Source: Candidatus Zambryskibacteria bacterium RIFCSPLOWO2_02_FULL_51_21
Lineage (GTDB): Bacteria; Patescibacteriota; Minisyncoccia; Phycocordibacterales; Zambryskibacteraceae
Length of the DNA stretch: 64,000 nucleotides
NCBI GenBank assembly: GCA_001824255.1
Contig: MHWQ01000002.1
Span: 205,446-269,445, forward strand
Reading direction: 5' to 3'
How positions within the stretch are numbered: position 1 is the first letter of the stretch; every line of letters starts with the position of its first letter. The notes below the pieces were generated by a model that was not told the origin of the DNA, searched no databases, and saw nothing but the letters and a program-made list of their open reading frames with translations. This document shows positions 6,243 to 64,000 of the stretch, piece after piece. Position numbers and translations under genes: made by a program.

Positions 6243-7299
6243 GGTAAAGTATTACGCCCGTTATGGCGCAGACAACCGAGACTATCCAGTAGCGCATGAC
6301 GACTTTCTCGCGCGGCCAGCCCTTCGCCTGGAAGTGGTGATGGAGTGGCGCCACGATAAATACTCTGCGCTTGTGGAAGAATTTGTAAACAAAAATTTGG
6401 ATGATGACAGAAGCGGTCGTCGCCACCAAAGGCAAGGCGATGATGGGCAAGAGCAGGACCGAATCGGTGAGAAAGGCAATAACCGCGAGCGTCACTGTAA
6501 GCGCGAGCATGCCGCTCTCCCCCATGTAGAAACGCGCCGGCGGCACGTTGAACCAGAGGAAGGCCAGTATGCCGCCGGCGATAGCTCCGGAAAGCGCCGA
6601 GATGTCGTATTGAGCGCCAAGGAAGGCAATGGCGGCAAAGGCGGAGAAGCACGAGGCGAGCACCCCGCCCGCCAGGCCGTCGAGCCCGTCTATGACTGAG
6701 GTTGAGAAAGTCCCGAGCACCACTAGGACAAAGAGCGGTATGAACCAGGCGCCAAGCATCCACGGGCCGTCAAAGGGTATATGGATAGAAACGAAATCAA
6801 GCTTGAAGTAGAACCACGAGGCAATGGCCAAGCCGATGAGAGTGACGAAAACGATTTTTACCTTGCGGTAGGCCAGAGCATCCTTGGCATAGCTACCCTG
6901 CCCGAAAATCTGCAGAAGGTCGTCGAAGAGCCCGATAATAGCGGTAAGGAAGAAGGCACCCAGGGGTACTACCGTCTGCGAGCGGCTGAAGAAGTTTACT
7001 TGGTCGAAGATGCTCCGCTCGCCGCCGAAGAGCCCTGCCGGGAAAAATTTCGAGAGTATGAAGATTAAGGCGACGGTAACAAAGACCGAGACCCAGATGA
7101 TGACGCCGCCGACACGCGGGGTCGAGAGTTCATGGTCGGTATTGTGAATCTCTTTGAAAGCGCCCGAGGTATCCGCTTCAGTCCGCGGACTCTTTTTCCA
7201 CATTTTATATTTGTAGAAGTAGCGGGTGAGAATCGGGGTGATGAAAATACCGGTGAAGAAAGTCAGAACTGTAGGAGCAATTATCTTTAAAATATCCAT
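6232..7299 (-). CDS. mraY: Phospho-N-acetylmuramoyl-pentapeptide transferase
   Basis: MraY-like 10-TM protein with conserved DDxxD/HHH regions, dcw context. Confidence 0.9.
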   Translation of the reverse strand: MDILKIIAPTVLTFFTGIFITPILTRYFYKYKMWKKSPRTEADTSGAFKEIHNTDHELSTPRVGGVIIWVSVFVTVALIFILSKFFPAGLFGGERSIFDQVNFFSRSQTVVPLGAFFLTAIIGLFDDLLQIFGQGSYAKDALAYRKVKIVFVTLIGLAIASWFYFKLDFVSIHIPFDGPWMLGAWFIPLFVLVVLGTFSTSVIDGLDGLAGGVLASCFSAFAAIAFLGAQYDISALSGAIAGGILAFLWFNVPPARFYMGESGMLALTVTLAVIAFLTDSVLLLPIIALPLVATTASVIIQIFVYKFFHKRRVFIVAPLHHHFQAKGWPREKVVMRYWIVSVVCAITGVILYLVS

Positions 7300-9088: not shown

Positions 9089-10012
9089 TTAGTTTTGATT
9101 AAGGCTCTTGAAAACCGCGTCGATAAGCATCGCCGCGTCTTCGAAGCGGCCTTTCTCGGTCGAGCCGAGCACAGTCACGATGACCGGACGCCCGAGCTCC
9201 GGGTCGAAGATAAGAGACAGATTGCCGCCGGCCGTCGCGGTGAAGCCGGTTTTAGACGCGAGGAGACCGGGGATGTCCCCCGCCAGAGCATTGGTATTTG
9301 TCGCCTTGTGGCTCTGCTTGTCGAGGGAAGAGAAGACGGCTGAGATTTCCCTCGTCGCCTCGAGATAGTCCGGGTGATGGATGAGAAGATATTCCATGAG
9401 CGCCGTCACGTCCCTCGCGGTACCGTAGGCGCCGCCCTTGAACTCTGTCTCGTCGAGGCCGGTCTCATTCTTGAAATAAGTGTTCCTGAGGTCAAGCGCC
9501 GCGGCTTTCTCATTCATCCTCATCACGAAATCGCCGATAATCTCATCCTCGGACGCTTCCGACTTACTCATTGCGCCGAGTGAGAGAGCCGCGGCACGGA
9601 TGCCGTCGTTCGAGGAGGAAATGAGCGAGAAATCAAGCAGGTCGCCGAGATTCCACTTTTCCCCCGGTTTGAGCCCGCTGTCTCCCTCGGCGGCGAGAGC
9701 CCGGCCGTCAATCGCCACCTCCGCGTAATCCGGGGAGAGCTCGCGCGCCACGAGTGCCGACATAACCTTGGTGAGAGAAGCAAGCGGCAGGCGGAGATTC
9801 TCGTTCTTGGCGTAGAGCACTTCTCCGGTGCGGACGTCATAGACGTAAACAGCCTTGGCCTTGAGCTCGATTTTTTCGAACGGGTTTTGAACCAATTCGG
9901 TTGGCACCGAATTGGTTCTGCGCTCAGCCCGGGAACCGATGAGATAAGAGCCGAGCATGAGAACCGTGAGCCCGGCTGAAAGAAGAACCAGGAATTTTAT
10001 TTCATCAGTCAT
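9089..10012 (-). CDS. Serine-type D-Ala-D-Ala carboxypeptidase (peptidase S11, PBP5-like)
   Basis: SxxK motif (ASLTKVM), SxN (SSN), KTG; N-terminal TM. Confidence 0.8.
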   Translation of the reverse strand: MTDEIKFLVLLSAGLTVLMLGSYLIGSRAERRTNSVPTELVQNPFEKIELKAKAVYVYDVRTGEVLYAKNENLRLPLASLTKVMSALVARELSPDYAEVAIDGRALAAEGDSGLKPGEKWNLGDLLDFSLISSSNDGIRAAALSLGAMSKSEASEDEIIGDFVMRMNEKAAALDLRNTYFKNETGLDETEFKGGAYGTARDVTALMEYLLIHHPDYLEATREISAVFSSLDKQSHKATNTNALAGDIPGLLASKTGFTATAGGNLSLIFDPELGRPVIVTVLGSTEKGRFEDAAMLIDAVFKSLNQN

Positions 10013-10553
10013 TTTTTTCTTCTGGTTCGCCGGATTTTATAAATTCCTCCATTTTTTTGAACGCCGTCTCATAATCCGGCAATTCCTCGCGGCGGGGAGT
10101 GCCCAGATGTTCAAGGAGCTTGAGGGTAGGTTTATAACTGTAACTGCGTTCCCCTTCTATATCTGTCCTCTCGATAAGCCCTCTAATCATTAATGCGCGC
10201 AAAATGTAGCCGCAATTTACCCCCCTGATATGGTCAATTTCGCGCCTTGAAACCGGTCCACGATAAAGAATAATGGCTAGAGTCTCGAGTCCGGCCCGGC
10301 CAAGCTCGCGGGAAAATTCTTCTTTTTGAATCTCTTCTATTAATCCCGAATTGTCTGGGTGAGTGCCGAAGCTATAATTCTCCCCGTCGGTAACGATAAC
10401 TATCCCTCTTTCTTTATAAAATTCCTGCAAATTTTTCAAAACATCTTTTATCTCAAGCTGTGAAGCTCCAAGAAGCTTATGAAGCTCCGAAGCTGTAATT
10501 GGTTCGTTCCGGAAGAAAAGCACTGATTCAATTTTCTTCTCCAGGTCAGGCAT
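10005..10553 (-). CDS. scpB: Segregation and condensation protein B
   Basis: ScpB winged-helix repeats, adjacent to scpA. Confidence 0.85.
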   Translation of the reverse strand: MPDLEKKIESVLFFRNEPITASELHKLLGASQLEIKDVLKNLQEFYKERGIVIVTDGENYSFGTHPDNSGLIEEIQKEEFSRELGRAGLETLAIILYRGPVSRREIDHIRGVNCGYILRALMIRGLIERTDIEGERSYSYKPTLKLLEHLGTPRREELPDYETAFKKMEEFIKSGEPEEKND

Positions 10554-40933: not shown

Positions 40934-41025
40934 TTACTTAATTATCTATGGTATAATCCCCTTGTCCAGCCGGAGAGACTTCTTAGGCCGGTATTAGGGA
41001 CTTAATTACCAATTACATTTAAATT

Positions 41026-41283
41026 ATGGCAAGAACTGCGAATCCGGCACTCCTTAGGCCCATGACCCTGTCTTCGGAACTCGAGGCAGTAGTGGGCAAA
41101 GGACCGATGCCCAGGGGCCAAGTGGTGAAGAAGATGTGGGAGTACATCAAGAAGAACGACCTCCAGAATCCTTCCAACAAGAGGAACATCTTCTCTGATG
41201 AGAAGCTTAAGCCCATCTTCGGCGGCAAGAGCGAAGTGACGATGTTTGAGATGACCAAGCTTGCTTCCGGACACATGAAGTAA
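41026..41283 (+). CDS. SWIB/MDM2 domain protein (85 aa)
   Basis: SWIB-like conserved pattern (..VVKKMWEYIKKNDLQNP..KR.I..DEKLK.IFG...V.MFEM.KL...H); extended -10 TGGTATAAT at 40949-40957. Confidence 0.6.
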   Translation: MARTANPALLRPMTLSSELEAVVGKGPMPRGQVVKKMWEYIKKNDLQNPSNKRNIFSDEKLKPIFGGKSEVTMFEMTKLASGHMK

Positions 41284-41310
41284 TTCGGGCTTGGGTCTGA
41301 GAGGAGAAAA

Positions 41311-41346
41311 CCAGCCCCGCCGCTCTGCGGCGGGGCTGGTTTTGAT
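41311..41346 (+). terminator. Rho-independent terminator after SWIB gene
   Basis: 13 bp GC-rich stem CCAGCCCCGCCGC...GCGGCGGGGCUGG followed by UUUUGAU. Confidence 0.75.
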
Positions 41347-41381
41347 AAAGAACGGCATCAGGTAGATTCTTTTTATCACAC

Positions 41382-41411
41382 TTGACATAGTGTCCTTTTT
41401 TGTATTAAGAT
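41382..41411 (+). promoter_or_regulatory. Promoter TTGACA-N18-TAAGAT upstream of sulfatase-like gene
   Basis: TTGACA 41382-41387; TAAGAT 41406-41411; partial inverted repeat GACA-TAG-TGTC overlaps the -35. Confidence 0.45.
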
Positions 41412-41491
41412 AATGAATAGAAGTTCGTTGGAATTCAGCACGCCAAGCCCAAACTTGGCCCACACAACCCCACACAGGAAGAAGGTAGACA

Positions 41492-43186
41492 ATGCGGAAA
41501 AGACTTGGATTCGCCGTGCTGGTCGCTATTCTCACGGGGGCCATCCTAACCCCCGCTCAGACGAAATCGAATGTCGTCGTCATCATGGCGGACGACATTC
41601 CCATGAGCGACATCACCACCATGGTGGCTCAAAGCCAGCTCCCCAACATCAAGGGGCTACTGGACACCGGAATCGAGTTCACCCAAGCCATTTCTAGCGG
41701 CTCGGTCGGCTCGACGGCGCGCATCTCTGTCCTCACAGGACAATACGCGCAGAACCACAAGGAGTTTGGAGCGGACCTCTTCTACGGAGGCCCGGTCCGA
41801 CACAACGAGGCGACCCTCTTGCCAAACTGGCTGCGGCCCGCCGGCTATATTACCGCGAAGGTCGGACGCACCATCCCAGGCTACGGCGCTGGTGATCTCA
41901 CCACTGAAGAGCTCCAGGGAATCGCCGCAATGCATCCGACCGTGACAGCTGAGCAGCTTCGTCTGTTCTACTCCACTTTCCCGAAGTGTTCGTACATGCC
42001 GCCGGGTTGGTCCATTTGGTTCGTTTTTTGCGAGCCGTGGACCTGGAGCGTCCACAAGTACAAGGCCTCTATCAGCGGGACCAAGATGGACTTCAGTTCA
42101 TACAACACCCCGGTGGAAAGGTGGCACCAGACCGACTTCGTAGCTGATGTCGGAGACTGGTTCATCAGGACAGCCGCAACTTTGGGAGCACCATGGTTTC
42201 TGGAGCTCGCTCCAGTCGCCTACAACCGCGAGTTATGGCCCGGGCCGGACGTTTACAACGTCTGTCCGGACCCCACGCAGCCACAAGCATGGTGGTACGG
42301 TGGACGATACTCGGGCGTCTCAGAAAGGCCGCCACTGCGCCACATAAACACCATCTGGAACGCGAATGACCCGAACGGCGTGGCACTAGCGTCGCTCGAC
42401 TTCTCGTTCCCCACGCCACCCTCATTCGACGAAGAGGATGTTTCAGACAAACCCACGTGGGTTCAGAACCTCCCGAGAATCTCTGCAGAGGACTTCGATT
42501 GCCTCCAGAAACGTTACTGGCGCCGGCTCGAGACGGTCAAGTCCATCGACGACCTGGTGGGCAAGGTGATGAAGGCGCTCGCGGAGACGGGCCAGCTCGA
42601 CAACACTTACGTGGTGTTCATGGCCGACAACGGAAACAACGACGGCCATCACCGCTACAACGAGAAGCTGTCGGCGTATGAGAATTCCCTACGGATCCCC
42701 CTCATCATCCGGCGGCCAGGCACGACTACTCCGGTCAAAGTGGACAAGCTGGTGCTGGGCGTCGATATCGCCCCGACCATCGCGGCCATCGCTGGAGCTA
42801 CGCCGAATATCGTGGTGGATGGCAGGTCTCTCCTGCCACTCATGGACAACCCCAGTTTGCCTTGGCGCAAGATGGGGCTCATCCAGCACACGCTCGGTGT
42901 CTGGGACGCAGGGGAAGCCACTACTGCTCCCCGTGAGTACTACGGGCTCCGGATCGGCAACGGTAACCCGCGCTTGTTCCTGAACTACCCCAAGGTGCAA
43001 ACCGGCGTCCGAGGGGAGTACTACAAGATGGCGACGGACCCGTATCAGCTCAATAACCTGTACGGGATGGCGACCACGGAGATAACCAACATCTCCCCAT
43101 GGCTCAACGCCATGAAGGTGTGTAGGGGCAACAACCCCACCACCGTGGGAAGCTGTGCGTGGTTGGAGAACAACTTCAACCGCTGA
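41492..43186 (+). CDS. Secreted sulfatase-fold hydrolase (alkaline phosphatase superfamily); canonical C/S-x-P-x-R formylglycine motif not evident
   Basis: Signal peptide, VVVIMADD metal-binding start, ...GSTARISVLTGQY where sulfatases have CxPxR...LTGRY; GC about 58-60%, GC3-rich. Confidence 0.65.
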   Translation: MRKRLGFAVLVAILTGAILTPAQTKSNVVVIMADDIPMSDITTMVAQSQLPNIKGLLDTGIEFTQAISSGSVGSTARISVLTGQYAQNHKEFGADLFYGGPVRHNEATLLPNWLRPAGYITAKVGRTIPGYGAGDLTTEELQGIAAMHPTVTAEQLRLFYSTFPKCSYMPPGWSIWFVFCEPWTWSVHKYKASISGTKMDFSSYNTPVERWHQTDFVADVGDWFIRTAATLGAPWFLELAPVAYNRELWPGPDVYNVCPDPTQPQAWWYGGRYSGVSERPPLRHINTIWNANDPNGVALASLDFSFPTPPSFDEEDVSDKPTWVQNLPRISAEDFDCLQKRYWRRLETVKSIDDLVGKVMKALAETGQLDNTYVVFMADNGNNDGHHRYNEKLSAYENSLRIPLIIRRPGTTTPVKVDKLVLGVDIAPTIAAIAGATPNIVVDGRSLLPLMDNPSLPWRKMGLIQHTLGVWDAGEATTAPREYYGLRIGNGNPRLFLNYPKVQTGVRGEYYKMATDPYQLNNLYGMATTEITNISPWLNAMKVCRGNNPTTVGSCAWLENNFNR

Positions 43187-43252: not shown

Positions 43253-43324
43253 GTGGACCTAGGCGGAATCGGACCGCCGTTTCGGCAATGCGAATGCCGT
43301 GTTCTGCCACTAAACTATAGGCCC
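43251..43324 (-). tRNA. tRNA-Ala (anticodon CGC), CCA encoded
   Basis: Manual cloverleaf: acceptor GGGCCUA/UAGGUCC with G3:U70, D-loop AGUGGCA, anticodon loop UUCGCAU, T-stem GGCGG/CCGCC; T-loop UCCGAUU has C at position 55; 5' end overlaps DedA stop codon. Confidence 0.6.
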
Positions 43325-43905
43325 TTTTTCCCCTTAAAATATTGGATAACCGGCGGAATCAAGGATACCACAACGATAAGCCCCACGATAGGCAAAACAT
43401 AGCGGTCCGCATCGGGAATCGACTGGCCGAAGAAATATCCCGCCGAGGTAAGGCCGACCGCCCAGATAAGAGCCCCGAAGAAGTTATAGAAAGTAAAAAT
43501 TTTGTACTTCATCTCCCCCACTCCGGCCATTACGGGGATAAAAGTGCGCACTATTGGAACGAAGCGTGCGAGCACTATCGCTTTCTTGCCATGCTGGTCG
43601 AAAAAGCTCCTGGTCTTCTCGATATTTTCCGGGCTGAACCAGAATGATTTGGGCCGAGAGAAAATTCTTGGGCCGATTTTCCTTCCAATCCAGTAACCGG
43701 TCGCGTCTCCGGCAAAAGCCGCGAGGAAAAACATGGGCAAGAGAAACTCTATGCGCAAGTACCCCTGCGACGCGAGAAATCCGGCGGTGAAAAGAAGCGA
43801 ATCCCCCGGCAGGAAAAAACCGACGAATATGCCCGATTCGGCATAAATGATGCCGAAAAGGCCGAGATATCCGGCTGTTTGAATCAAAGAGACGAGGTCG
43901 AACAT
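43315..43905 (-). CDS. DedA/SNARE-associated (TVP38/TMEM64) family membrane protein
   Basis: DedA signature region (GIFVGFFLPGDSLLFTAG...), multiple TM. Confidence 0.75.
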   Translation of the reverse strand: MFDLVSLIQTAGYLGLFGIIYAESGIFVGFFLPGDSLLFTAGFLASQGYLRIEFLLPMFFLAAFAGDATGYWIGRKIGPRIFSRPKSFWFSPENIEKTRSFFDQHGKKAIVLARFVPIVRTFIPVMAGVGEMKYKIFTFYNFFGALIWAVGLTSAGYFFGQSIPDADRYVLPIVGLIVVVSLIPPVIQYFKGKKGL

Positions 43906-43928
43906 TGACCCACTATATCATCGAAATA

Positions 43929-44189
43929 TTATTCGAGGAAAACCTGCGCGCCCTCCTTGGCTCTCTGCGAGAGCTTCACCGCCGCGTCGGCTCCTTTCTT
44001 CGCCTTATCCGCGTCGGCGTGGTCAATCTGGAGGGAGGAAACAGTCTCTTCGAACTCCTCATCCCCTTTCTTTATCTTTATCCTGTCGCCCTTCCCGAGC
44101 GGACCGGTGAGCTTTATCACGGCTACGCCGATCTTGTCGTACCAATGGGTAACGGTGCCTATCTGCTTGGCCATGCCTGTATTATACAC
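43929..44189 (-). CDS. Small hypothetical protein (about 81-86 aa), beta-rich N-terminal half and Lys/Ala-rich tail
   Basis: ORF track; likely start at internal MAKQIG (44174) with TATAAT 7 nt upstream (possibly leaderless). Confidence 0.5.
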   Translation of the reverse strand: MYNTGMAKQIGTVTHWYDKIGVAVIKLTGPLGKGDRIKIKKGDEEFEETVSSLQIDHADADKAKKGADAAVKLSQRAKEGAQVFLE

Positions 44190-44206
44190 CCGGGAGAATA
44201 TACCAG

Positions 44207-44280
44207 TGGACGATACAGGATTCGAACCTGTGACCTTACGAATGTGAATCGTACGCTCTAACCAGCTGAGCTAATCGTCC
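44207..44280 (-). tRNA. tRNA-Val (anticodon CAC)
   Basis: Canonical cloverleaf: GGACGAU/AUCGUCC acceptor, D-arm GCUC-AGCUGGUUA-GAGC, anticodon loop UUCACAU, T-arm ACAGG-UUCGAAU-CCUGU. Confidence 0.85.
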
Positions 44281-44284
44281 CTTG

Positions 44285-44355
44285 TGGACCCACGGGGAGT
44301 CGCACCCCGGACTCGTCCATGCCATGGACGCGTGTTACTGCTATACCATGGGCCC
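44285..44355 (-). tRNA. tRNA-Ala-like (anticodon GGC), degenerate D-arm and T-loop; possibly pseudo-tRNA
   Basis: Acceptor GGGCCCA/UGGGUCC with G3:U70, anticodon stem CGUCC/GGACG, loop AUGGCAU; T-loop UGCGACU (G55) and weak D-stem. Confidence 0.4.
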
Positions 44356-44410
44356 ATTTGCGGCTTTATTTTGCTTCATTTTTAAGATAGAATCAAGTTC
44401 GTTACTTTTC

Positions 44411-44435
44411 AAAAATGAGCCCCCGGCTCATTTTT
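44411..44435. terminator. Bidirectional terminator-like element AAAAA-UGAGCC-CCC-GGCUCA-UUUUU abutting tRNA-Ala(TGC) 5' end
   Basis: 6 bp stem, 3 nt loop, symmetric A and T runs. Confidence 0.5.
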
Positions 44436-44508
44436 GGGCCCTTAGCTTAGTTGGTAGAGCGCCTCATTTGCAATGAGGAGGTCAGCGGTTCGAATCCGCT
44501 AGGGTCCA
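44436..44508 (+). tRNA. tRNA-Ala (anticodon TGC)
   Basis: GGGCCCU/AGGGUCC acceptor with G3:U70, D-arm GCUU-AGUUGGUA-GAGC, anticodon loop UUUGCAA, T-arm AGCGG-UUCGAAU-CCGCU. Confidence 0.85.
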
Positions 44509-44807: not shown

Positions 44808-45794
44808 TTGTATATGAAAAATATAATACTCATAGGATTTATTATTTTAACTCTCGGACTGTCTAGTATTGGCCACGCGGCTACCACTCCTACCTTATCG
44901 GACAGTTCGACGTATGCGATTCTTTCCAGTACCTATACCGATACGTCTGGCGCAACGACAATCAATGGAGACGTCGGCTTCACCACTCCCCCGGCAACCC
45001 CGCCACTTGGCACACAAACGAATTATGGAAGTGGAGCGCCATACTCTGTGGCTGGTACTGACCAAGCGGCCGTATTAGCTCTCTTGAATGCCCAGCCGTG
45101 CGATTTTACCTTCGGGGCTGCCACTGATTTGAGCCTGGAGACCCAGCCTCTCCAGCCGGGTGTTTATTGCATTACGGGAGCGCAATCTGTTGGGACAGCA
45201 GGGATCACATTGCTTTCTGGAACGTATATATTTAGATCAACGGGTGCTCTCAATACAGTGGCGAACTCCGTGGTTTCTGGTGGTAATGCCTGCGATGTTT
45301 TCTGGACACCAACGGCTACCACATTGGGAGCCAACTCTACTTTTTTCGGAACAGTGATTGATGACGCTGGAATCACAGTCGGAGCCGTAACTACATGGCT
45401 TGGCCGGGCGCTTGCTTTTGGGGGCACGGTTACGACAGACACTAATACCATCACAGTGCCTAATTGTGCTCCTGTGGTCCCCACACCACCCTCGCCTCCA
45501 GTCCCAACCCCTTCTTCTGGCTCATCGCATTCTGGAGGAACGAAGAGATGTGATACTTCTACCACACTTAGTTGCGAAGAATATTTCAGAAGCCCGGCAG
45601 TTAGCCCAGCAGTAAGTACGGTAGTTGCGGTACCTGAAGTGCTTGGAGTTTCAGTGTCTCCATATTCATATCCGACTCCATCGATGCCTAGTACAGGAGG
45701 GAGTCGTGATTACATGATCCATCTACTTCAACTTGCGAGCATTCTAATTGTTTCTGGAGGACTATCAATGTTCGTAGCAAGAAAAAGTAGATAA
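44808..45794 (+). CDS. Secreted DUF3494 (ice-binding-like beta-helix) family protein with C-terminal sortase-type sorting signal (MPSTGG-TM-RKSR)
   Basis: Signal peptide; N-terminal ...YAILSSTYTDTSGATTINGDVGFTTP... and C-terminal ...GRALAFGGTVTTDTNTITVP resemble DUF3494; Pro/Ser-rich stalk; lower GC about 45%. Confidence 0.5.
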   Translation: MYMKNIILIGFIILTLGLSSIGHAATTPTLSDSSTYAILSSTYTDTSGATTINGDVGFTTPPATPPLGTQTNYGSGAPYSVAGTDQAAVLALLNAQPCDFTFGAATDLSLETQPLQPGVYCITGAQSVGTAGITLLSGTYIFRSTGALNTVANSVVSGGNACDVFWTPTATTLGANSTFFGTVIDDAGITVGAVTTWLGRALAFGGTVTTDTNTITVPNCAPVVPTPPSPPVPTPSSGSSHSGGTKRCDTSTTLSCEEYFRSPAVSPAVSTVVAVPEVLGVSVSPYSYPTPSMPSTGGSRDYMIHLLQLASILIVSGGLSMFVARKSR

Positions 45795-46376: not shown

Positions 46377-47279
46377 CTATCCGTTTCGGCTGAGGACAAG
46401 ACTTATGCAATGGTCCACGAAGTCATGCGGCTTAATACCGGTTGAGAGAAGCGAGTCATACAGGCGCGAATCTTCGTGCAGAACCGGCTGAGAATCTGTT
46501 TCGAGGATATAAATTTTACCTCTCGGCGTGATAATGAAATCCGAACTCGAATAGTGCCTTAGACCAAGCGCTTCGTGCGCTCGCTTGCTTATCTCGATAA
46601 TCTTCGCGTTTTCTTCCTGAGTGGTATTGCCGTATGGAATCAGGGCATAAGTCTTCTCCCCCCTCAGACCCTCGACCACTCCGCAGGTCGCTTCCCTGCC
46701 CTGTACGAATTCCTCGACCAGAACTTTTCTCGAATGAGAGAAAGCGTTCTTTATCGCCTCTTTGAGTTCGATGATACCGTGTGCCAGACGGACACCGACG
46801 GAGGAACCGGCGGAAGCGGGCTTCACTATAACCGGATGGATGTAATTCCTCACCACATAAACCAGTTTTTCTTCCGTTAAGGTCTCGGGGGTAAAGAGCT
46901 CATGCCGCGGCATGAGAAGTCCGGCATTCTGGTAAGCGAGCTTGGCGACCTCCTTGTCGTAAGCGCGAGCCGAGGCGTGCATACCGGAGCCGGTGTAAGG
47001 AATTTTCAGATTCTCGAGCTGTTTCTGCACTTGTCCGTCCTCGCCATAGTGTCCGTGCATGGCATTCCAGACCACATCGGCGTCTCCCAGAGCTTCGTAA
47101 GGCTCGCGCACGATGCCGTCGCGATGCCATTCGCCGTCTTTTGATATGAAAATATCCACCGGCTCGTATCTACCCTCCCATTTGCGGAGAAGCGAGAGGA
47201 TATTTGCACCGGTTTTGAGTGACACGTCGTACTCGGGCGAAGGACCGCCCCGGAGAACCGCGACTCTGATGCTCGACAT
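46377..47279 (-). CDS. ddl: D-alanine--D-alanine ligase
   Basis: ATP-grasp Ddl; N-terminal VAVLRGGPSPEYDVSL. Confidence 0.85.
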   Translation of the reverse strand: MSSIRVAVLRGGPSPEYDVSLKTGANILSLLRKWEGRYEPVDIFISKDGEWHRDGIVREPYEALGDADVVWNAMHGHYGEDGQVQKQLENLKIPYTGSGMHASARAYDKEVAKLAYQNAGLLMPRHELFTPETLTEEKLVYVVRNYIHPVIVKPASAGSSVGVRLAHGIIELKEAIKNAFSHSRKVLVEEFVQGREATCGVVEGLRGEKTYALIPYGNTTQEENAKIIEISKRAHEALGLRHYSSSDFIITPRGKIYILETDSQPVLHEDSRLYDSLLSTGIKPHDFVDHCISLVLSRNG

Positions 47280-47291
47280 ACTAATATTATA

Positions 47292-48491
47292 TCAAATCCT
47301 GAATCCTTTGTTCCTCAAAAGACGGTGATAATTTATGGCGAAGCGGTGCGCTTCGGAGTTCGCTAGGAGAATCTCTTTTTCTTTTGTTTCTTGCTTCTTG
47401 ATTCTTGCTTCTTGCCAAAGTATGGCTCTGGCCCTATGCCTTTCATCCTTCACTACAGACACAACCCCAATCATTTCGAGGCCCATCTTGTCGAGTTCGG
47501 AGCGGGCGGCATTGAGTTGCCCCTTGCCGCCGTCCACCACAACCAGGTTCGGGAAACGCCATTCCGGATGGCCGAATCGCCTGGAGATTATTTCCCTGAG
47601 ATTCTTCGTATCATCGTTCTTATCCTCACGAATTTTGAACTTCCTATACTGGCTCTTGTTCACTTCCCCATCCTCAACGACAGTCATTACTCCCACGGCA
47701 TTTGTGCCGGAAATATGCGCAATGTCGTATGCCTCAATACGAAAACTGGGTGTTAAGGACTTGGTGCTAGGTGCTAGGTCTTGCTTTATTAACACAACAT
47801 CATGAATATGCTGTAGGGCAAAAATCTGCCTTTTCGCAATCTCTGCGTTCTCGAACTCATGCTTTTTCGCATAAGATTTCATTTCCCTCTCGAGAGATTT
47901 TATGAGAGTTTCCTTCTTGCCTTCAAAAAATAATTTTATCTTTCTGATTTGCTTCCGGTAGTCAGTCTTCGAAATCTTGCCGGCACACGGGCCGGGACAG
48001 AGGCCGATCTGCGCGTTGAAACAAGGTTTGCCCGAGAGTTTGCACCTGTCATCGCGATACGGGAAAATTTTCCGAATAATTTTCAAAGCTTCCTTCAATT
48101 CTCCAGAATGCGGAAATGGGCCGTACGTGCCCGAGCCTCTTGTGATTACCACTTTCGGAAACTCCTCTCTCGTAACTGTAACGAAGTTGTAGCTCTTGTC
48201 ATCCTTCTCGCGCGAGTTGTATATGGGCTGATGCTTCTTAATCTCATTGGCTTCGAGAATTAAAGCTTCCAGTACTGAATCAGTCTGCGCATACTCGACT
48301 GATTCTGCTTCTTCGAGCATCTTCACTATTTTCGGCCCGCGGGATAGGAAAATATCTTTCGAAAAATAGCTCCTCACCCTGTCGGCAAGCGAAGTGGCCT
48401 TGCCGATATACAGAATCCCCTTCCCCTTCTTGAAGAAATAGACCCCGGGCGCATCAGGGAGATTGAACTTTTTTAGCTCTTGACTTTTCAT
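47292..48491 (-). CDS. uvrC: Excinuclease ABC subunit C, short form (GIY-YIG, Cys-rich/UvrB-binding, RNase H-like endonuclease domain; no C-terminal HhH)
   Basis: GIY-YIG (GVYFFK...ILYIGKA), only 399 aa. Confidence 0.8.
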   Translation of the reverse strand: MKSQELKKFNLPDAPGVYFFKKGKGILYIGKATSLADRVRSYFSKDIFLSRGPKIVKMLEEAESVEYAQTDSVLEALILEANEIKKHQPIYNSREKDDKSYNFVTVTREEFPKVVITRGSGTYGPFPHSGELKEALKIIRKIFPYRDDRCKLSGKPCFNAQIGLCPGPCAGKISKTDYRKQIRKIKLFFEGKKETLIKSLEREMKSYAKKHEFENAEIAKRQIFALQHIHDVVLIKQDLAPSTKSLTPSFRIEAYDIAHISGTNAVGVMTVVEDGEVNKSQYRKFKIREDKNDDTKNLREIISRRFGHPEWRFPNLVVVDGGKGQLNAARSELDKMGLEMIGVVSVVKDERHRARAILWQEARIKKQETKEKEILLANSEAHRFAINYHRLLRNKGFRI

Positions 48492-48524
48492 TTTATAGTT
48501 GTATTATAGTACTTGGAGGTTTCC

Positions 48525-48743
48525 ATGTTCATAACTGTAGACATTCTGTACCTGAAGAACAAGAAAACGGTTCCTGCCCCCGCCGGCTTCCCGAGCCAGG
48601 TGACGGTCGAGCTGGCGGATGCCAGACAGCTCACAGACAAGGTGGTCGAGGAAGCGGTGTGCCGCCGCCTCGCCTACCACAACATCACCGCCCGGCAGGG
48701 AGTTGGAGCGGTGGAATTCGGGTACATCCCCGTAGACCGCTAG
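48525..48743 (+). CDS. Small hypothetical protein (72 aa), GC3-rich, between uvrC and uvrA on opposite strand
   Basis: RBS GGAGGT 4 nt before ATG 48525, -10 TATAGT upstream, terminator downstream; ORF-track TTG start rejected. Confidence 0.45.
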   Translation: MFITVDILYLKNKKTVPAPAGFPSQVTVELADARQLTDKVVEEAVCRRLAYHNITARQGVGAVEFGYIPVDR

Positions 48744-48750
48744 TGCCCTC

Positions 48751-48789
48751 AAGGCCGCCCATGTTGGGCGGCCTTAATTTATTTCTTCC
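48751..48789. terminator. Terminator hairpin shared by small ORF (+) and uvrA (-)
   Basis: AAGGCCGCCC-AUGUU-GGGCGGCCUU followed by AAUUUAUUUCUUCC on + strand. Confidence 0.65.
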
Positions 48790-51331
48790 TCAGTGCCTTA
48801 CGCAGATACTTGCCCGTGTAAGTATCGGTATTGGCGACCTCTTCCGGCGTGCCTTCGGCCACCAGCTCGCCTCCGCCGTCACCCCCCTCCGGCCCGATGT
48901 CGAGGATGTAGTCGGCGGACTTGATGAAGTCGAGATTGTGCTCGATGACAATGACCGTATTGCCCTTATCCACAAGCTTCTGGAGAATCTCGATTAATTT
49001 CTTTACATCAGCATAGTGGAGACCGATTGTCGGCTCATCGAGAAGATAAATCGTTTTCTCGAGATGTGGGCGGTAAAGTTCCGAAGCAATCTTTACCCTC
49101 TGCGCTTCTCCGCCGGAAAGAGTCGTCGCCGATTGCCCCAGAGCAAGATAGCCGAGCCCCACGTCATTCATACTCTTCAATCTGTCATAAATGGCCGGAA
49201 TATCCTCGAAGAACTTGAGCGCCTCCTCGACCGTCATCTCAAGGACTTGGAAAATATTTTTGCCCTTATACTTCACTTCCAGAGTCTCTTTCATAAATCT
49301 CTTGCCGCCGCAGACATCGCAAGGCACATAGACGGTCGGTAGGAAATGCATCTCGACCTCTATCATGCCGTTCCCCTGGCAAGTCTCGCAGCGGCCGCCC
49401 TTCACGTTGAAGGAGAACCTGTTCGCCTTCCAGCCGCGGGCCCTGGCCTCGGCCGACTCGGCGAATAACTCGCGTATGAAAGTGAATGCACCTGTATAAG
49501 TGGCCGGGTTACTCCTCGGCGTGCGGCCTATGGGCGACTGGTCGATGAGAATGGAGCGGCCGAGATACTCCGACCCTTCAAATGATTGGCAGTTGTAAGT
49601 ATTGGCGTTCCTGTAACGGCGGTCGAGGCGGACCTCAAGATTCTTGTGCAAGATTTCATAGACGAAAGAGGATTTGCCCGAACCGGAGACTCCCGTGACC
49701 GCTATGAGCCGGTGGAGCGGGACATCAACGTTCAAATGTTTGATGTTGAAAATCTTGCCGCCGCGAATTCTTATAACTCCCCTCTCACTTTCTCTCCTCT
49801 TCTCGGGCTTCTCTATTTTCTCTTCGCCACGAAGATAAGAGAGGGTGAGAGAACCGGATTTATTCTTGGGGCTGGTGAGAAGTTCGTCGAGGTCTCCTGA
49901 CACAACCACTTCTCCGCCGTGCACTCCCGCGCCGGGACCGATATCCACTATGTAGTCGGATGAGTAAATAGTTTCTTCGTCATGCTCGACTATGAGAATG
50001 GTGTTGCCGAGGTCTCGCAAATTTATAAGCGTCTTGATAAGGCGCTCGTTGTCGCGGGCGTGAAGCCCGATAGTCGGCTCATCGAGCACATAGAGCGCGC
50101 CGACAAGGCCGGAGCCAAGCTGGGAGGCGAGGCGTATGCGCTGCGCCTCGCCGCCGGAGAGCGTGTGCGCCCGGCGGTCAAGCGAGAGATATTCGATACC
50201 GACGTTTAACATGAAGGAGAGACGTGCTTCAATCTCCTTGGTCACCACCTTTGAAATATTTTTCTCGCGGACCGTCAGCTTCAACTTCTTGAAGAATTCG
50301 TCACAATCTTTGATAGACATCTTCGTCAGTTCAAGAATATTCTTGCCGCCGATTAAAACATGGAGGGCTTCCTTCCTAAGCCTGGCTCCGCCGCAATCTT
50401 CACAGGGTTCAGAGCCAAATAAATATTTTGTCCCCAAACCATTACAAGTCGGGCAGGCGCCGTAAGGCGAGTTGAAGGAGAAAAGGCGCGGCTCGATTTC
50501 TGGGAAGGAGAAGCCGTCCTTTGGGCAAGCCCACTTGGCGGAGAGTAAATGTTCTTCGGAGCCGAGGCGGAGCACCAGAAGCCCGTCGGATTCGTGTATC
50601 GCCTTCTCTATCGCCTCGCTTAGCCTCTCGCCGGAGCTCTTCTCGTCGAATTTAAACTCTTTCGGATTGATGAAGTCGACCAGGACAGAAATTTCGTGCT
50701 TCTTGGTCTTGGTGAGCTCGATTCGCTCCCTTAGAGACTTCTTCTTGCCGTCCACCATGACGGTGGTATAGCCCTTACCGAGCAAATCATACAGCAGCTG
50801 GTAATATTCCCCCTTCCGCCCGCGGACGATGGGGCTCCATATCTCGACGTCTGCCGAGGATTTCGCTACTTTCTCCAGCACGAAGTTCTTTATCTCTTCA
50901 TTCGACAATTTTTTAATCTCGGTGCCACAAACCAGGCAGTGCGGGTGACCGACGCGCGCGTACAAAATTCTCAAATAATCATAAATCTCGGTAATGGTCG
51001 CTACCGTCGATCGCGGATTGTTGGAGCGACTTTTCTGGTCTATGGAAATGGCGGGTGAAAGGCCGATAATCTCGTCCACATCCGGCTTCTGCATCTGGCG
51101 CAGGAACTGTCGCGCGTAGGAAGAAAGCGATTCCACATAGCGCCTCTGCCCCTCTGCGAAAATGGTGTCGAAGGCAAGCGATGATTTGCCGGAACCAGAG
51201 AGGCCGGTGAAGACAATCATCTTGTTCCGCGGCATCTCAACCGTAATATTCTTAAGGTTATGGGTGCGGGCACCTTTTACAATGATTTTGTCGCCCGGAG
51301 CTACCGATGTTTTGGTCTTTTTCTCTGACAT
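48779..51331 (-). CDS. uvrA: Excinuclease ABC subunit A
   Basis: Two ABC ATPase modules with Walker [10 protein letters not shown] / GVSGSGKSS, zinc-finger Cys clusters; 850 aa. Confidence 0.9.
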
Positions 51332-51393
51332 ATAGCAATTCGCCCATGGGCTGGCCCATAGGGGTATAACGGAACAATCCTAACATATCCATC

Positions 51394-51972
51394 TTACTTT
51401 TTCTCGCGCTCAAACCTGAGCACACTACCTGTAAAGTTCTTACCTGAGTCCTCAAAGCAGACTTCATAATCAACAGAATATTTTTCTGCTTCAGGAATAT
51501 GATTCTTTTTTATAAACCGGAATTCTCGAATCAGTCCCGTTGATTTCTTGAGAGGACAATCCTTAAGATGTTCCACGAGGTATTTTGCAAACATGAGCCA
51601 AGGAGGAATATTTGTTATATCGGAAGGAAGCCCAAACTGCTCAAGCATATTGTAGAGATTCCCCCTTAGATCTCCAAGAGAGAAGAACTGGTGATTGAAA
51701 TCTGAGTGATGAAATTTATCTTCAGGATGCTCAATGATAAATTTCTCCATTTCTTCCAGTGTTCCTCTGGCAAATTCCTTATTAGTGAGATTTGTGTGCA
51801 CAGCCCAATTGCACCAATGTTTAACTCTATCCCATTCAGGAAGACTGCTTCCATTTTCTTCTTCCATTTTATCTACCAGTCTTCTCAACTCGACCATTAT
51901 GTACACGACTCGCTCTTTTTCGATTGGTTTTTGTAAGGCTGACCTTAAGTTTTCTATTATTTCTTGTCTCAT
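51394..51972 (-). CDS. Hypothetical protein (192 aa), AT-rich (about 38% GC), start overlaps uvrB stop (TAATG)
   Basis: ORF track; strong compositional contrast with flanking uvrA/uvrB; His/Cys/Trp-containing, no recognisable domain. Confidence 0.6.
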   Translation of the reverse strand: MRQEIIENLRSALQKPIEKERVVYIMVELRRLVDKMEEENGSSLPEWDRVKHWCNWAVHTNLTNKEFARGTLEEMEKFIIEHPEDKFHHSDFNHQFFSLGDLRGNLYNMLEQFGLPSDITNIPPWLMFAKYLVEHLKDCPLKKSTGLIREFRFIKKNHIPEAEKYSVDYEVCFEDSGKNFTGSVLRFEREKK

Positions 51973-53996
51973 TATTTCTTCTTGGGTAATCTGGCTTCCA
52001 ATGCCCTAATCTCATCTCTGATAATAGCGGCGGATTCGAAGTCGAGGTTTTTGACGGCTTCTTCCATCTCCTTCATCTTCTGCTTGATGACTTTCTTCGG
52101 CGACTTCTTGAAGAGCGCGGCGTCGGTTTCAAGAAGCATATCGACGGCATGGTGATGCTCGCGCTCGAGCGTGTCGGTGATGTCCTTAATCTTCTTCACA
52201 ATGGTCTTGGGCGTTATGCCATGCTTGGTGTTGTAGGCAGTCTGAAGCTTCCTCCGGCGGGCGGTCTCATCTATGGCGTACTTCATCGAGCCCGTGACTG
52301 AGTCGGCGTAGAGGATAACTCGGCCAAGAACGTTCCTCGCCGCCCGGCCGATAATCTGGATGAGCGAAGTCTCGCTCCGCAAAAAACCTTCTTTATCAGC
52401 ATCGAGAATACCGATAAGGGTTATTTCGGGAAGGTCTATACCTTCCCTCAATAGATTCACTCCCACGATGCAGTCGAACTCGCCCTTGCGCAGACGGGTC
52501 AGTATCTCTATGCGCTCGATGGTCTTGATATCGCTGTGCAAGTATTCCGCCTTTATCCCCTTCTCTTTCAAATATTCACTCAAGTCCTCGGCCATCTTTT
52601 TGGTCAGCGTTGTCGCCATGACCCGGCCGCCCTTCCCTATCGCCTTCTCCGCTTCGGCGATGAAGTCTTGCACCTGGCCAGGATAAGACCCTTTTTGAAG
52701 TATCGGCTTCACCGATACTTCTGGGTCTATGAGGCCTGTCGGGCGGATAATCTGCTCGACCACCTTCTCACTCACCTCTTTCTCATACTTGGCCGGCGTG
52801 GCGCTCGTATATATGACCTGCCCCACGCGCTCGGAGAACTCTTCGAACTTCAAAGGCCGGTTGTCGCGGGCCGAAGGCAGCCGGAAGCCGTGCTCGATGA
52901 GCGTGTTCTTCCTCGACCTGTCTCCCGCGAACATGCCCCCAATCTGCGGCACGGTGACGTGGCTCTCGTCGATAATAGTCAAGAAACCTGCCTCGCCGGT
53001 AGGCAGGTCTTTAGGAAAATAATCCAGAAGCGTGTAAGGCGCTTCGCCCACCTTCTTCCCGGTAAAATGTCTCGAATAATTCTCGATGCCGTTGGTGTAG
53101 CCGACTTCGCGAAGCATGGCGAGGTCATAGGAGGTGCGGCGCTTCAGGCGCTCGGCTTCGAGCACTTTGCCGTCCTTCTTTAATTCCTCGAGCCGGTCTT
53201 CAAGCTCGCTCTTGATGCTTTCGAGTGCGCGCTTGTTGGCATCGTCCGCAGTGATGAAGTGCTTGGCCGGGAAGAGGAAAAAGACTTCCGGCTCGGAGAT
53301 TATCGTCCGCGAGACTGCGTCTATCTTTTGTATCTTCTCTACCCTCTCGCCTTTAAACTCGACCCTGTATATGACCCGCTCTGAGATGGGCATGATTTCG
53401 ACCGCGTTACCCAGAGCGCGGAACACACCCGGCTTCACGTCCGCGTTGGTGCGTTTGTAATGGATATCGATGAGATTCCTGACAAGATCTCCCCTGGAGA
53501 TCTTGTCCCCGTTCGAAAGTTTCAGATTTACCTTTTCATATTCCTCCGGGTCGCCCAAACCATAGATGCAAGAGACGGAGGCGACGATAATGACGTCCTT
53601 CCTCGTGAGCAGGGCTTGGGTCGAGGCGTGGCGCAGGCGCTCAATCTCTTCGTTAATCATCGCCTCCTTCTCGATGTAAGTATCCGTCACCGGCAGATAC
53701 GCTTCCGGCTGGTAGAAGTCATAATAGGAAACGAAGTAGTGCACGGCGTTGTCCGGGAAAAATTCCCGGTACTCCTGCGCGAGTTGGGCAGCCAGGGTCT
53801 TGTTGTGCGCGATGACAAGCGTGGGCTTCCCAATTTTCTCTATGACATTGGCGACGGTGAAGGTTTTGCCGGAACCGGTCACGCCAAGCAAGGTTTGATG
53901 TCTCAAACCTTGCTTAATACCTGCCACCAGCTCCTTTATGGCCTGAGGCTGGTCGCCGGCCGGCTTGAAATCGTTCTTTATCTTAAAGGCGGTCAT
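51972..53996 (-). CDS. uvrB: Excinuclease ABC subunit B
   Basis: Helicase motifs GVTGSGKT, DESH, C-terminal UVR domain. Confidence 0.9.
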   Translation of the reverse strand: MTAFKIKNDFKPAGDQPQAIKELVAGIKQGLRHQTLLGVTGSGKTFTVANVIEKIGKPTLVIAHNKTLAAQLAQEYREFFPDNAVHYFVSYYDFYQPEAYLPVTDTYIEKEAMINEEIERLRHASTQALLTRKDVIIVASVSCIYGLGDPEEYEKVNLKLSNGDKISRGDLVRNLIDIHYKRTNADVKPGVFRALGNAVEIMPISERVIYRVEFKGERVEKIQKIDAVSRTIISEPEVFFLFPAKHFITADDANKRALESIKSELEDRLEELKKDGKVLEAERLKRRTSYDLAMLREVGYTNGIENYSRHFTGKKVGEAPYTLLDYFPKDLPTGEAGFLTIIDESHVTVPQIGGMFAGDRSRKNTLIEHGFRLPSARDNRPLKFEEFSERVGQVIYTSATPAKYEKEVSEKVVEQIIRPTGLIDPEVSVKPILQKGSYPGQVQDFIAEAEKAIGKGGRVMATTLTKKMAEDLSEYLKEKGIKAEYLHSDIKTIERIEILTRLRKGEFDCIVGVNLLREGIDLPEITLIGILDADKEGFLRSETSLIQIIGRAARNVLGRVILYADSVTGSMKYAIDETARRRKLQTAYNTKHGITPKTIVKKIKDITDTLEREHHHAVDMLLETDAALFKKSPKKVIKQKMKEMEEAVKNLDFESAAIIRDEIRALEARLPKKK

Positions 53997-62112: not shown

Positions 62113-64000
62113 TTACTTATTCAATTCACTCCTAGTGAGCGGACCAACTGAACCAACTGGCTCTAGACCCCGGGCACTCTGGAAGGCAGTCACAGCGGCT
62201 TTGGTCAGTTCACCGAAGTAGCCGGTAATTGGCCCCAAGTAATAGCCTAAGCTCTTCAGTGTTTCTTGAAGTAGAGTCACCTCTGGGTCTCTTACTCCCA
62301 CATAAAGAGTTTCGGTAAACTTGTCGGAAGAGAAAGTTTGGTTACCAGTATTAGCCACCACCTGGAGCTGGTTAAGCTCATCGGCGATGGCCTGCAATTC
62401 CACTATGTAAGAGGTTAGGTTTACCAACCCAGGATCAGCGGCAATTCTCTGAGAGAGTAAGGCAAGTTTGTTTTGGACAGGCACAAGACGAGAGGGGTCA
62501 ATTGGCTTTAGCGCTTGATTATTGATAACGCCACCGGTACCCCCTCTATTGTTTGGGCTCGGAGAATCCCCAGGAGTCGTAGGAGGGTTAGTCGGTGGTG
62601 GCGAAGGCGGTGGAGGTGAGACACTGTATACAGATAAGAAGTCTTCTGCGGAATAACCATCAGCTCCAGTGTCATAGTTAATCTGCCACCAGTTGAATGA
62701 GTCTGCGGTCACTGGTCCGGATGTGACGGTGCCTAGACTACCGAGTGTTTGAGTACCGAGGAGTGTGCCTGTGGTATCTGCTGTGGCTCTGACGTTTATA
62801 TTAGTTGTTGCTTGGACTCTTTGACCTATGGTGAATTTGGCTGATGGGGTTGGAGGAGGGGGGGGTGGAGGTACTGGTGGAGGAGTAGTTTGGGTACCGC
62901 TAAATTCATAAGCTCCGATGTCCCAGGCGGGGCCTTGGGGGCGGGAGACGTTCCCAATGTCATACCGTATGCTTTGTCCCGGATACCTTGTTTCAAAAGC
63001 CGCCATAGCCGCAGATAATCCGCCCGTATCTATAGCGGGAGAACCAGCCTGAAGTTTAAAATCACCGCCCGCTGGATTAACAAGGAGTGGGTTAACATTC
63101 CTTGTGTTTATTGACTGAGCAGGAAATGCAGAATTAAACCCGGCAACATCGTATATTGAAGTCGTGCCCCACTGAATTCTTGCCGGAGAATTGAATATTA
63201 TATTGTTCTTCATGCTTCCCCCTGCAGAAATACTTGTATCAAAAAGCCAGATATCTCTTCCCTGAGAGTCATTTCTGTTGCCCAAAATATTATTTTCAAT
63301 AATTATTGACCCTGGAGCAGGAGTTTGTATTCCTGCCGAATAATTCCAAAAAGTATTATTCAGAATATACTTGGTGCCGGAATGCCGTAAACTCATAGCC
63401 GCATCAAGATGCGGATTATCCATTGAGCTTCCGTCACTATTGGTAACGTTCATAATGACATTGCCGATGAAAAATCCGTTAGGAACATTGGCGCTTCCGG
63501 TGCCTATCCCCACTTCACAATCAAGCATGTAATTGCCTATAAACCATATATAATCCGGATAATCACCTTGCATACCCATACAAGCACCCCCCGATGAGTT
63601 GCTGGGCCTAAAGCTTTGCAGTAAGTTCTGAGAAAATATCACATCAGTTGCGTCTTTCGTCCATAGACCAGTCTGCTTGTTGTTATGTGAATAGTTGCGT
63701 CCAATATATATTTTGTAAGGCCTGGCCCCGACGGCAGATGGTGAGTTCCCCACCTGCACTCCATCACCGCTGCAACGCGCCAGCTCGTTATCAAGCACCC
63801 AAACATTATTAGCCGCGCCCTCCATTTTTATGCAATGGATATCCTGATCATAAGTAGCATAAATATCACCCGCATCATGAATATAATTTTTATAAATTAC
63901 TATATACGCGGAGCTCCCAAACCCGATACCTCCTGAAGTTAAACTTCCGACGAGCTCATTATTACGGATTGATATGGCATAATTTGCCCCGATCTCAATT
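62113..64000 (-). CDS. Large secreted right-handed beta-helix (pectate-lyase-fold) protein with poly-Pro linkers, SH3-like domain and C-terminal peptidoglycan-binding (PG_binding_1) domain; N-terminus beyond window
   Basis: PbH1-like repeats (NNIIFNS..., GNVIMNV...), PPPVPPPPPPP and PPPPSPPPTNPP linkers, C-terminal LQETLKSLGYYLGPITGYFGELTKAAVTAFQ; reading frame open from 63825 to 64000. Confidence 0.7.
   Translation of the reverse strand, partial: IEIGANYAISIRNNELVGSLTSGGIGFGSSAYIVIYKNYIHDAGDIYATYDQDIHCIKMEGAANNVWVLDNELARCSGDGVQVGNSPSAVGARPYKIYIGRNYSHNNKQTGLWTKDATDVIFSQNLLQSFRPSNSSGGACMGMQGDYPDYIWFIGNYMLDCEVGIGTGSANVPNGFFIGNVIMNVTNSDGSSMDNPHLDAAMSLRHSGTKYILNNTFWNYSAGIQTPAPGSIIIENNILGNRNDSQGRDIWLFDTSISAGGSMKNNIIFNSPARIQWGTTSIYDVAGFNSAFPAQSINTRNVNPLLVNPAGGDFKLQAGSPAIDTGGLSAAMAAFETRYPGQSIRYDIGNVSRPQGPAWDIGAYEFSGTQTTPPPVPPPPPPPTPSAKFTIGQRVQATTNINVRATADTTGTLLGTQTLGSLGTVTSGPVTADSFNWWQINYDTGADGYSAEDFLSVYSVSPPPPSPPPTNPPTTPGDSPSPNNRGGTGGVINNQALKPIDPSRLVPVQNKLALLSQRIAADPGLVNLTSYIVELQAIADELNQLQVVANTGNQTFSSDKFTETLYVGVRDPEVTLLQETLKSLGYYLGPITGYFGELTKAAVTAFQSARGLEPVGSVGPLTRSELNK

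Follow-up and report, generated by a model that had tools for sequence, protein, structure and literature searches.

Our analysis concerned gene X, a 192-aa open reading frame (ORF) between uvrB and uvrA at 51394..51972 on the minus strand of a 64,000-nucleotide stretch of DNA from Candidatus Zambryskibacteria bacterium RIFCSPLOWO2_02_FULL_51_21 (contig MHWQ01000002.1); this whole stretch is referred to here as the window. The results have shown that X is a real gene of foreign origin, that it belongs to a widespread family without systematic linkage to nucleotide excision repair (NER), and that it occupies a slot which is variable among relatives. We consider it likely that X is a horizontally acquired accessory gene and not a part of NER, a member of a mobile family of ~190-aa proteins that has been retained and rides on uvrB expression. 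An earlier note on this DNA had suggested, as one possible explanation, that X is a foreign hitch-hiker in the operon. This is borne out by the outlying composition of X, a step in divergence at the uvrB/X junction, and the defence and mobile contexts of its homologues.

According to the mechanism that we propose, members of the X family would behave as gene-sized mobile units, usually within defence islands and integrative/conjugative elements, and would typically take the distal position, with a variable gene upstream. One copy would have landed directly behind the uvrB stop codon, upstream of the ancestral uvrA leader hairpin. Lacking a convincing promoter of its own, it would use the transcript and ribosomes of uvrB. 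As an event this is ordinary cargo acquisition; the family is undescribed, and its gene-sized mobility is unusually clean.

Composition, age and insertion site of gene X

Gene X has the lowest GC content (0.385) and the lowest GC content at third codon positions (GC3, 0.373) of the 65 ORFs in the window, with a z-score for GC of about -3.4. The 49 ORFs of at least 150 aa have a mean GC of 0.520 +/- 0.040 and a mean GC3 of 0.623 +/- 0.090, which upholds the compositional contrast with the flanks that had been described earlier. The start ATG of X and the stop TAA of uvrB have one base in common (TAATG, 51974..51970, minus strand), and 62 nt separate the end of X from the uvrA ATG at 51331 (spacer 51332..51393, minus strand). 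The length of the ORF and the overlap are as first reported, and only the distance to uvrA, previously given as 60 nt, had to be corrected. Upstream, uvrB (51972..53996, minus strand) encodes a full-length protein of 674 aa with the Pfam domains UvrB, UvrB_inter, Helicase_C and UVR. UvrB proteins of relatives align to its residues 4-674, indicating that the insertion of X left uvrB untruncated, and uvrA was not truncated either. A promoter and terminator scan of the locus found promoter-like sites on the X strand only inside X and no terminator after X on the strand of the gene. Taken with the TAATG overlap, this suggests that read-through and translational coupling from uvrB are the most likely means by which X is expressed.

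One other genome carrying uvrB-X was found (GCA_019661845.1, locus L003), and its TAATG junction is identical. Comparison of the two genomes gave 80% amino acid identity, 71.2% DNA identity and a third-position identity of 0.43 for uvrB, and the corresponding values for mreB were 92%, 78.5% and 0.45. For X they were 91%, 88.8% and 0.77. The two copies of X differ by 35 synonymous and 14 non-synonymous codon changes in 158 codons, and by this criterion X was shown to be under purifying selection. When identity was followed in 60-nt windows, it ranged from 0.55 to 0.88 in uvrB (mean ~0.7) and from 0.83 to 0.93 from the junction onward, and the raised identity reached at most ~30 nt upstream of the junction. 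Since the step falls exactly at the uvrB/X junction, X must have arrived or been exchanged after the two hosts diverged. Judged by this divergence, X is much younger than its flanks.

The same pattern was seen elsewhere in the family. Pairs of X-family genes, for example L104/L114, L104/L123, L102/L103 and L130/L149, are 86-98% identical at the DNA level and sit in flanks without detectable similarity, and in the two pairs that were aligned the homology extends from ~45-100 nt upstream to ~25 nt downstream of the ORF. Of 40 X-family genes compared with their surroundings, in hosts of 27-66% GC, 35 had the lower GC. These comparisons indicate that the moving unit is the gene itself. Among 13 loci of close homologues there were no shared terminal repeats, attC-like sites, or upstream or downstream motifs.

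Two loci deserve separate mention. In L123, which belongs to a high-GC subfamily, the X-family gene lies between direct repeats of ~45 nt (L123:2620-2760 and L123:3340-3400). The repeat is itself a 12-bp palindrome, CCCAC(G/T)CAAGCC...GGCTTGAGTGGG, and looks like a repetitive extragenic palindromic (REP) element or a miniature inverted-repeat transposable element (MITE). Its upstream copy is also present in L114 (L114:860-960). In L163, a segment of ~3 kb lies between two partial X-family fragments (6948-7172 and 10157-10486) and opens with a 549-aa ORF. Over 330 nt, the second of these fragments has 100% identity to L126. The ~3-kb segment may be a transposon insertion, and the X-family gene at this locus appears to be the target of insertion and not its agent.

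The insertion site was compared with 80 uvrB loci from GTDB species representatives, which were searched with the window proteins. In the window, uvrB, X, uvrA, uvrC and ddl form a five-gene run on the minus strand, with tgt and mreB upstream; the three uvr genes are therefore adjacent and on one strand, as the earlier note had observed. That note had called this clustering unusual, but the order tgt-uvrB-uvrA-uvrC-ddl recurs across Parcubacteria-type metagenome-assembled genomes and is the conserved order of this lineage. Adjacency of uvrB and uvrA was also found in Firmicutes (loci L041, L044 and L045). The window thus resembles the Firmicutes uvrBA arrangement and the Parcubacteria cluster (L008-L034) in having uvrB and uvrA on one strand, but differs in that these canonical clusters lack X and have uvrB and uvrA either 5-160 nt apart or split by unrelated genes. 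The synteny comparison that had been proposed to look for the same insert in relatives did not recover it: none of the 80 loci contained an X homologue (tblastn, 1e-5), and L003 remains the only other genome with uvrB-X.

Among the closest loci, 21 of Parcubacteria type hold uvrB and uvrA on one contig. The gap between the two genes is 5-160 nt in eight of these, and the empty spacers are those of L008, L009, L012, L023, L024, L026, L031 and L034. In the other 13 the spacer measures 0.7-4.7 kb, with no X homologue inside. The inserts that we sampled include genes for DUF218, a response regulator, a histidine kinase, an Ig-like surface protein, a PaaX/Cas2-like protein, a cupin, BipA and a VTT-domain protein. 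These findings suggest that the uvrB-uvrA spacer is a recurrent variable slot for unrelated genes in Parcubacteria and related groups (loci L008-L043). Some inserts recur, namely the DUF218 gene (L028, L032, L040 and L043) and a receiver-domain gene (L011, L013 and L021). Most of the inserts have host-like GC, in contrast to X.

The spacer between X and uvrA contains a hairpin (51343..51362, minus strand; motif ACCCCTA...GGGG). In many Parcubacteria it lies 10-25 nt 5' of the uvrA start, with a 5' arm of ACCCC(T)A, a 3' arm of GGGG and a variable interior, and in relatives it adjoins uvrA whether or not inserted genes are present (L008:2476-2514, L009:8058-8095, L011:11147-11184, L012:8098-8136, L017:4499-4536, L020:8742-8778, L024:2378-2415 and L025:9613-9651). 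This arrangement indicates that X was inserted behind the uvrB stop and in front of the ancestral uvrA leader; by this comparison, the 62-nt X-uvrA spacer is that leader. Covariation is weak, with compensatory changes in three of six predicted pairs, and the hairpin has no match in Rfam. It may act as a leader of uvrA, as an operator or as a 5' stabiliser.

The X family and its genomic surroundings

Gene X had been called an orphan, but a word-indexed search found 10 close homologues at 49-91% identity; the only one with a taxon name is P0001, from Candidatus Parcubacteria bacterium. A profile built from the close homologues was then run against 1.84 billion cluster representatives and recovered 1,396 of them at E <= 1e-3, of which 429 had E <= 1e-10. 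Nearly all of the best 150 matches listed are stand-alone proteins of ~165-230 aa. The earlier statement that X has no recognisable domain stands, as X was unmatched in Pfam, NCBIfam and PADLOC and its PHROG match was at chance level (E = 0.13). Searches with 118 diverse family members gave only noise in Pfam and scattered single matches in PADLOC (E >= 8e-4), and the family profile had no match among PDB sequences.

An alignment of these 118 sequences was used to assess conservation. W56 and H59 are invariant (100%), followed by R30 and K31 (98%), W125 and F128 (97%), P140 (95%), E20 (94%) and Y24 (93%), with lower values for C54 (85%), D138 (83%) and C139 (71%). Of the two clusters that had been singled out as conserved-looking, HWCNWAVH is indeed conserved, since it holds C54, W56 and H59, but HPEDKFHH is conserved only among close relatives. 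A zinc site formed by the Cys/His cluster was considered and rejected, as the two cysteines are conserved at only 85% (C54) and 71% (C139).

An AlphaFold model of X, made with the same alignment as input, had a pLDDT of 91 and a pTM of 0.87 and predicts a helical N-terminal domain (residues 1-136) with seven helices (2-136), followed by a small C-terminal beta-sheet of three strands (148-185). Foldseek searches found no match to the model below E = 0.7 in the PDB or below E = 0.5 in a viral structure library. The profile search and structure prediction that had been suggested for X therefore yielded a confident model and no profile or fold match, and no similarity of sequence or fold to a known repair protein was found. 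An assignment as a HEPN RNase was also rejected, there being no R-x(4-6)-H motif and no fold match. Taken together, these results define a large, unnamed and structurally unmatched family of ~190-aa proteins.

The earlier note had predicted co-expression and perhaps a shared function with NER genes, yet all homologues examined other than L003 are unlinked to uvr genes. One borders a serine-recombinase island between smpB and infC, one lies in a region with DpnII and MazE, and one after an NmeDI_C protein. A fourth has Schlafen/T5orf172 genes on one side and, on the other, a GmrSD-Schlafen gene with a Macro-domain gene behind it. A further homologue shares an element with ArdC, PIN, a reverse transcriptase and insertion sequence (IS) elements, and one adjoins a phage-type integrase and an IS110 transposase. 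In Staskawiczbacteria, a MazG-like gene and a Schlafen-helicase/S24 fusion precede the X homologue. Another homologue directly follows a tRNA and a gene resembling that of the pol III delta-prime subunit. In L006 (L006:830-898), a homologue of 53% identity starts right behind a tRNA-like 3' end (GGTTCGAATCC T-loop); the 3' end of a tRNA is a typical spot for island integration.

For a wider view, 76 metagenome loci of the family were taken and their 330 neighbour proteins clustered. Among the neighbours scanned there were ResIII helicases, OLD/GajA-like ATPases, GajB-like UvrD helicases, Shedu SduA, DUF6119 and the TrwC/TraI relaxase, together with nucleases of the PD-(D/E)XK, Mrr and HNH types, DNA methyltransferases, peptidases of the M78 and S24 families, and five matches to mad2. 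With crude ORF calling, the upstream neighbour was on the same strand in 51 of 63 cases, within 60 nt in 33, and overlapping or at most 10 nt away in 17. The position of X behind uvrB thus reflects an operon-distal habit of the whole family and not a link to repair. A literature search on uvrA/uvrB in the candidate phyla radiation (CPR) and on DUF6119 returned nothing relevant.

Alternative explanations and known systems

In its sporadic occurrence and its GC below that of the host, the X family is similar to the stand-alone cargo genes found in defence islands, for example those for single-gene abortive-infection proteins. Its neighbours also include restriction-modification, Gabija-like (GajA/GajB), OLD, Shedu, Schlafen/GmrSD and toxin-antitoxin genes. 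Unlike such cargo, no member of the family matches a PADLOC model or is known to have a defence phenotype, and the copy in the window lies inside a housekeeping repair cluster and not in a defence island. The neighbourhoods, together with an invariant polar cluster (E20, R30-K31, H59 and D138) on the helical domain, hint that X might be a ligand- or nucleic-acid-binding or catalytic protein in phage and mobile-element conflicts.

Several observations weigh against horizontal acquisition of a mobile accessory gene as the full account. Random insertion does not explain the same junction in two diverged genomes, and the L003 contig stops within X, where its downstream X-uvrA junction can no longer be compared. 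The association of the family with defence islands is qualitative. No conserved partner gene emerged: no neighbour family occurs in more than four loci, and duplicate contigs contribute to the largest clusters. X and the family consensus had no tblastn match in sequenced phage and plasmid collections, and a scan of IMG/VR viral contigs with alignment A1 gave no family match. The family is unmatched in PADLOC, Pfam, the PDB and the viral structure library, and none of its members has a demonstrated function. Finally, the transcription and translational coupling of X are deduced from sequence only.

Other models of a mobile gene were also considered. A two-gene or toxin-antitoxin module was rejected because no partner is shared by more than four loci. 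X could be compared with an integron cassette in being a single, apparently promoterless ORF that would depend on an upstream promoter and be exchanged at about gene size. This identity was rejected as well, since the close homologues have no common attC-like flank, and the adjacent hairpin is part of the uvrA leader and occurs in relatives without X. We think it unlikely that the family represents a selfish or conflict element of a new class, gene-sized and encoding a protein of ~190 aa with a fold not seen before, which either promotes its own insertion behind the stop codons of resident genes in a homing-like way but with no known nuclease domain, or acts as a new single-gene defence/anti-defence module. 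If this were true, the uvrB/uvrA copy would be a case caught in the act, with the same site filled in two diverged genomes.

A related and rather improbable explanation is that X is a homing-like selfish gene, whose product, or a host nuclease that it recruits, targets the empty uvrB-uvrA junction so that repair copies the gene into it. Such a mechanism would account for both the identical junction and the youth of X. The TAATG is the same in the window and L003, the synonymous sites of the flanks are saturated and those of X are not, and relatives with empty uvrB-uvrA spacers exist. The AT-richness of X relative to its host and the gene-sized units of 86-98% identity in unrelated flanks point the same way, and the invariant polar residues would be compatible with catalysis. 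The seg and mob genes of T4-like phages, which encode free-standing homing endonucleases, are gene-sized mobile units, lie between conserved genes, are often co-transcribed with the upstream gene, have an atypical composition and a patchy distribution with empty sites, and are less diverged than their flanks. X is like them in being gene-sized, AT-rich, patchy and younger than its flanks, with one site filled in two genomes and empty in relatives. However, X carries no recognisable nuclease motif or fold, and no homing-class nuclease domain (LAGLIDADG, GIY-YIG, HNH, PD-(D/E)XK or EDxHD) was found in it. Raised identity extends no more than ~30 nt upstream of the junction, leaving no clear co-conversion tract on that side. 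The family occupies very many unrelated sites and not one target, its close homologues have no common terminal repeats, and only two filled sites are known.

The earlier note had also offered an NER accessory factor or damage sensor, which would act with UvrB and UvrA and might, for example, compensate for an internal domain that the short UvrA lacks. UvrA of the window (48779..51331, minus strand; 850 aa, identified by the NCBIfam UvrA profile) lacks ~100 internal residues: its residues 307-848 match profile positions 406-942, and positions ~300-405 are unmatched. It has no Pfam UvrA_DNA-bind match, and the missing residues probably correspond to the insertion (DNA-binding) domain. UvrC (47292..48491, minus strand; 399 aa, identified with Pfam and NCBIfam) has GIY-YIG, UVR and RNase-H-like endonuclease domains, and no C-terminal helix-hairpin-helix domain was found by the same scans. 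These truncated forms, the position of X between uvrB and uvrA with overlapping stop and start, and the same arrangement under purifying selection in a second genome could all be read in favour of such a factor. Nevertheless, UvrA aligns contiguously with the UvrA of Parcubacteria and shows a gap of ~110 aa only against that of Firmicutes, and by this comparison the 850-aa protein is a short form typical of the lineage. UvrC is equally short in relatives. The short proteins are thus lineage-wide, but X is absent from all other Parcubacteria loci examined, as from the whole set of 80 related uvrB loci, and unrelated genes fill the same spacer elsewhere. With every homologue except L003 unlinked to uvr genes and X younger than its flanks, a role in NER is very unlikely. 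The note itself had named a lack of uvr linkage among homologues as grounds for refutation, and this applies to all of them but L003.

We find it just as hard to credit that the family supplies modular partners (sensors, regulators or adaptors) of upstream nucleic-acid enzymes, and that X redirects UvrB, for instance to foreign DNA. UvrB is an SF2-fold ATPase, and X overlaps its stop codon. The close spacing of many upstream neighbours described above (33 of 63 on the same strand within 60 nt, 17 overlapping or at most 10 nt away) speaks for such a partnership, and some of these genes encode helicases, ATPases or nucleases (ResIII, OLD, Schlafen helicase, TraI, SduA and PD-(D/E)XK). However, the upstream genes belong to no common family, and many encode proteins that are not NTPases, such as an M78 peptidase, a methyltransferase, a trypsin-like protease, the pol III delta-prime-like protein and small hypothetical proteins. 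Genes are as a rule densely packed in islands of this kind, no signal of co-evolution is seen, and X is younger than uvrB. That X could be a remnant in decay, or an ORF arisen by chance in an AT-rich spacer, as its atypical composition and lack of a known domain might suggest, is scarcely believable, because it is full length against a family of more than 1,000 clusters, differs from L003 mostly by synonymous changes, has a confident fold prediction and contains the family's invariant residues.

Other features of the window and biological meaning

Downstream of the uvr genes, ddl (46377..47279, minus strand; 300 aa) starts 13 nt past uvrC, and it lies downstream of uvrC in relatives as well. 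The earlier note had placed a small ORF between uvrA and uvrC, and this 82-aa ORF (48504..48752, minus strand) is probably not a gene. It had no family match in Pfam, NCBIfam, PADLOC or PHROGs, no homologue among 5.8 billion proteins and no tblastn match in related loci, and an ORF on the opposite strand has better signals. This candidate gene of 72 aa (48525..48743, plus strand) has a GGAGG ribosome-binding site 6-7 nt before its ATG and a TATAGT box upstream. By these signals it is the better gene candidate, and it had no homologue in related loci or the PDB. Right past the uvrA stop lies a 13-bp GC-rich hairpin (48751..48775) followed by a T-rich run on the plus strand, which may terminate transcription in both directions. 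The uvrA-uvrC spacer as a whole folds with z = -3.5.

Elsewhere in the window, a profile search found no second copy of X, and Rfam searches of the whole window and the locus returned five tRNAs only, none of them at the locus. Four ORFs are weaker GC3 outliers (0.40-0.46), at 44808..45794 (plus strand) and at 62113..63825, 10005..10553 and 41002..41544 (minus strand). An ice-binding-like protein is among these lowered-GC3 ORFs and adjoins a cluster of four tRNAs at 43254-44508. They may be further acquired genes, although as outliers they are much weaker than X.

In conclusion, the finding is of little consequence for DNA repair, as X is not a missing component of NER and the clustering of the uvr genes is normal for the lineage. 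Its interest lies in the family, which comprises more than 1,000 clusters at 50% identity, has a confidently predicted fold, lacks an entry in Pfam and NCBIfam and finds no match among solved or viral structures. Since it moves as a single-gene unit through defence islands, the family is a reasonable candidate for experimental screening. For the organism, the locus illustrates that the tiny genomes of Parcubacteria take up such cargo and keep it inside core operons, with the uvrB-uvrA spacer as a recurrent slot.
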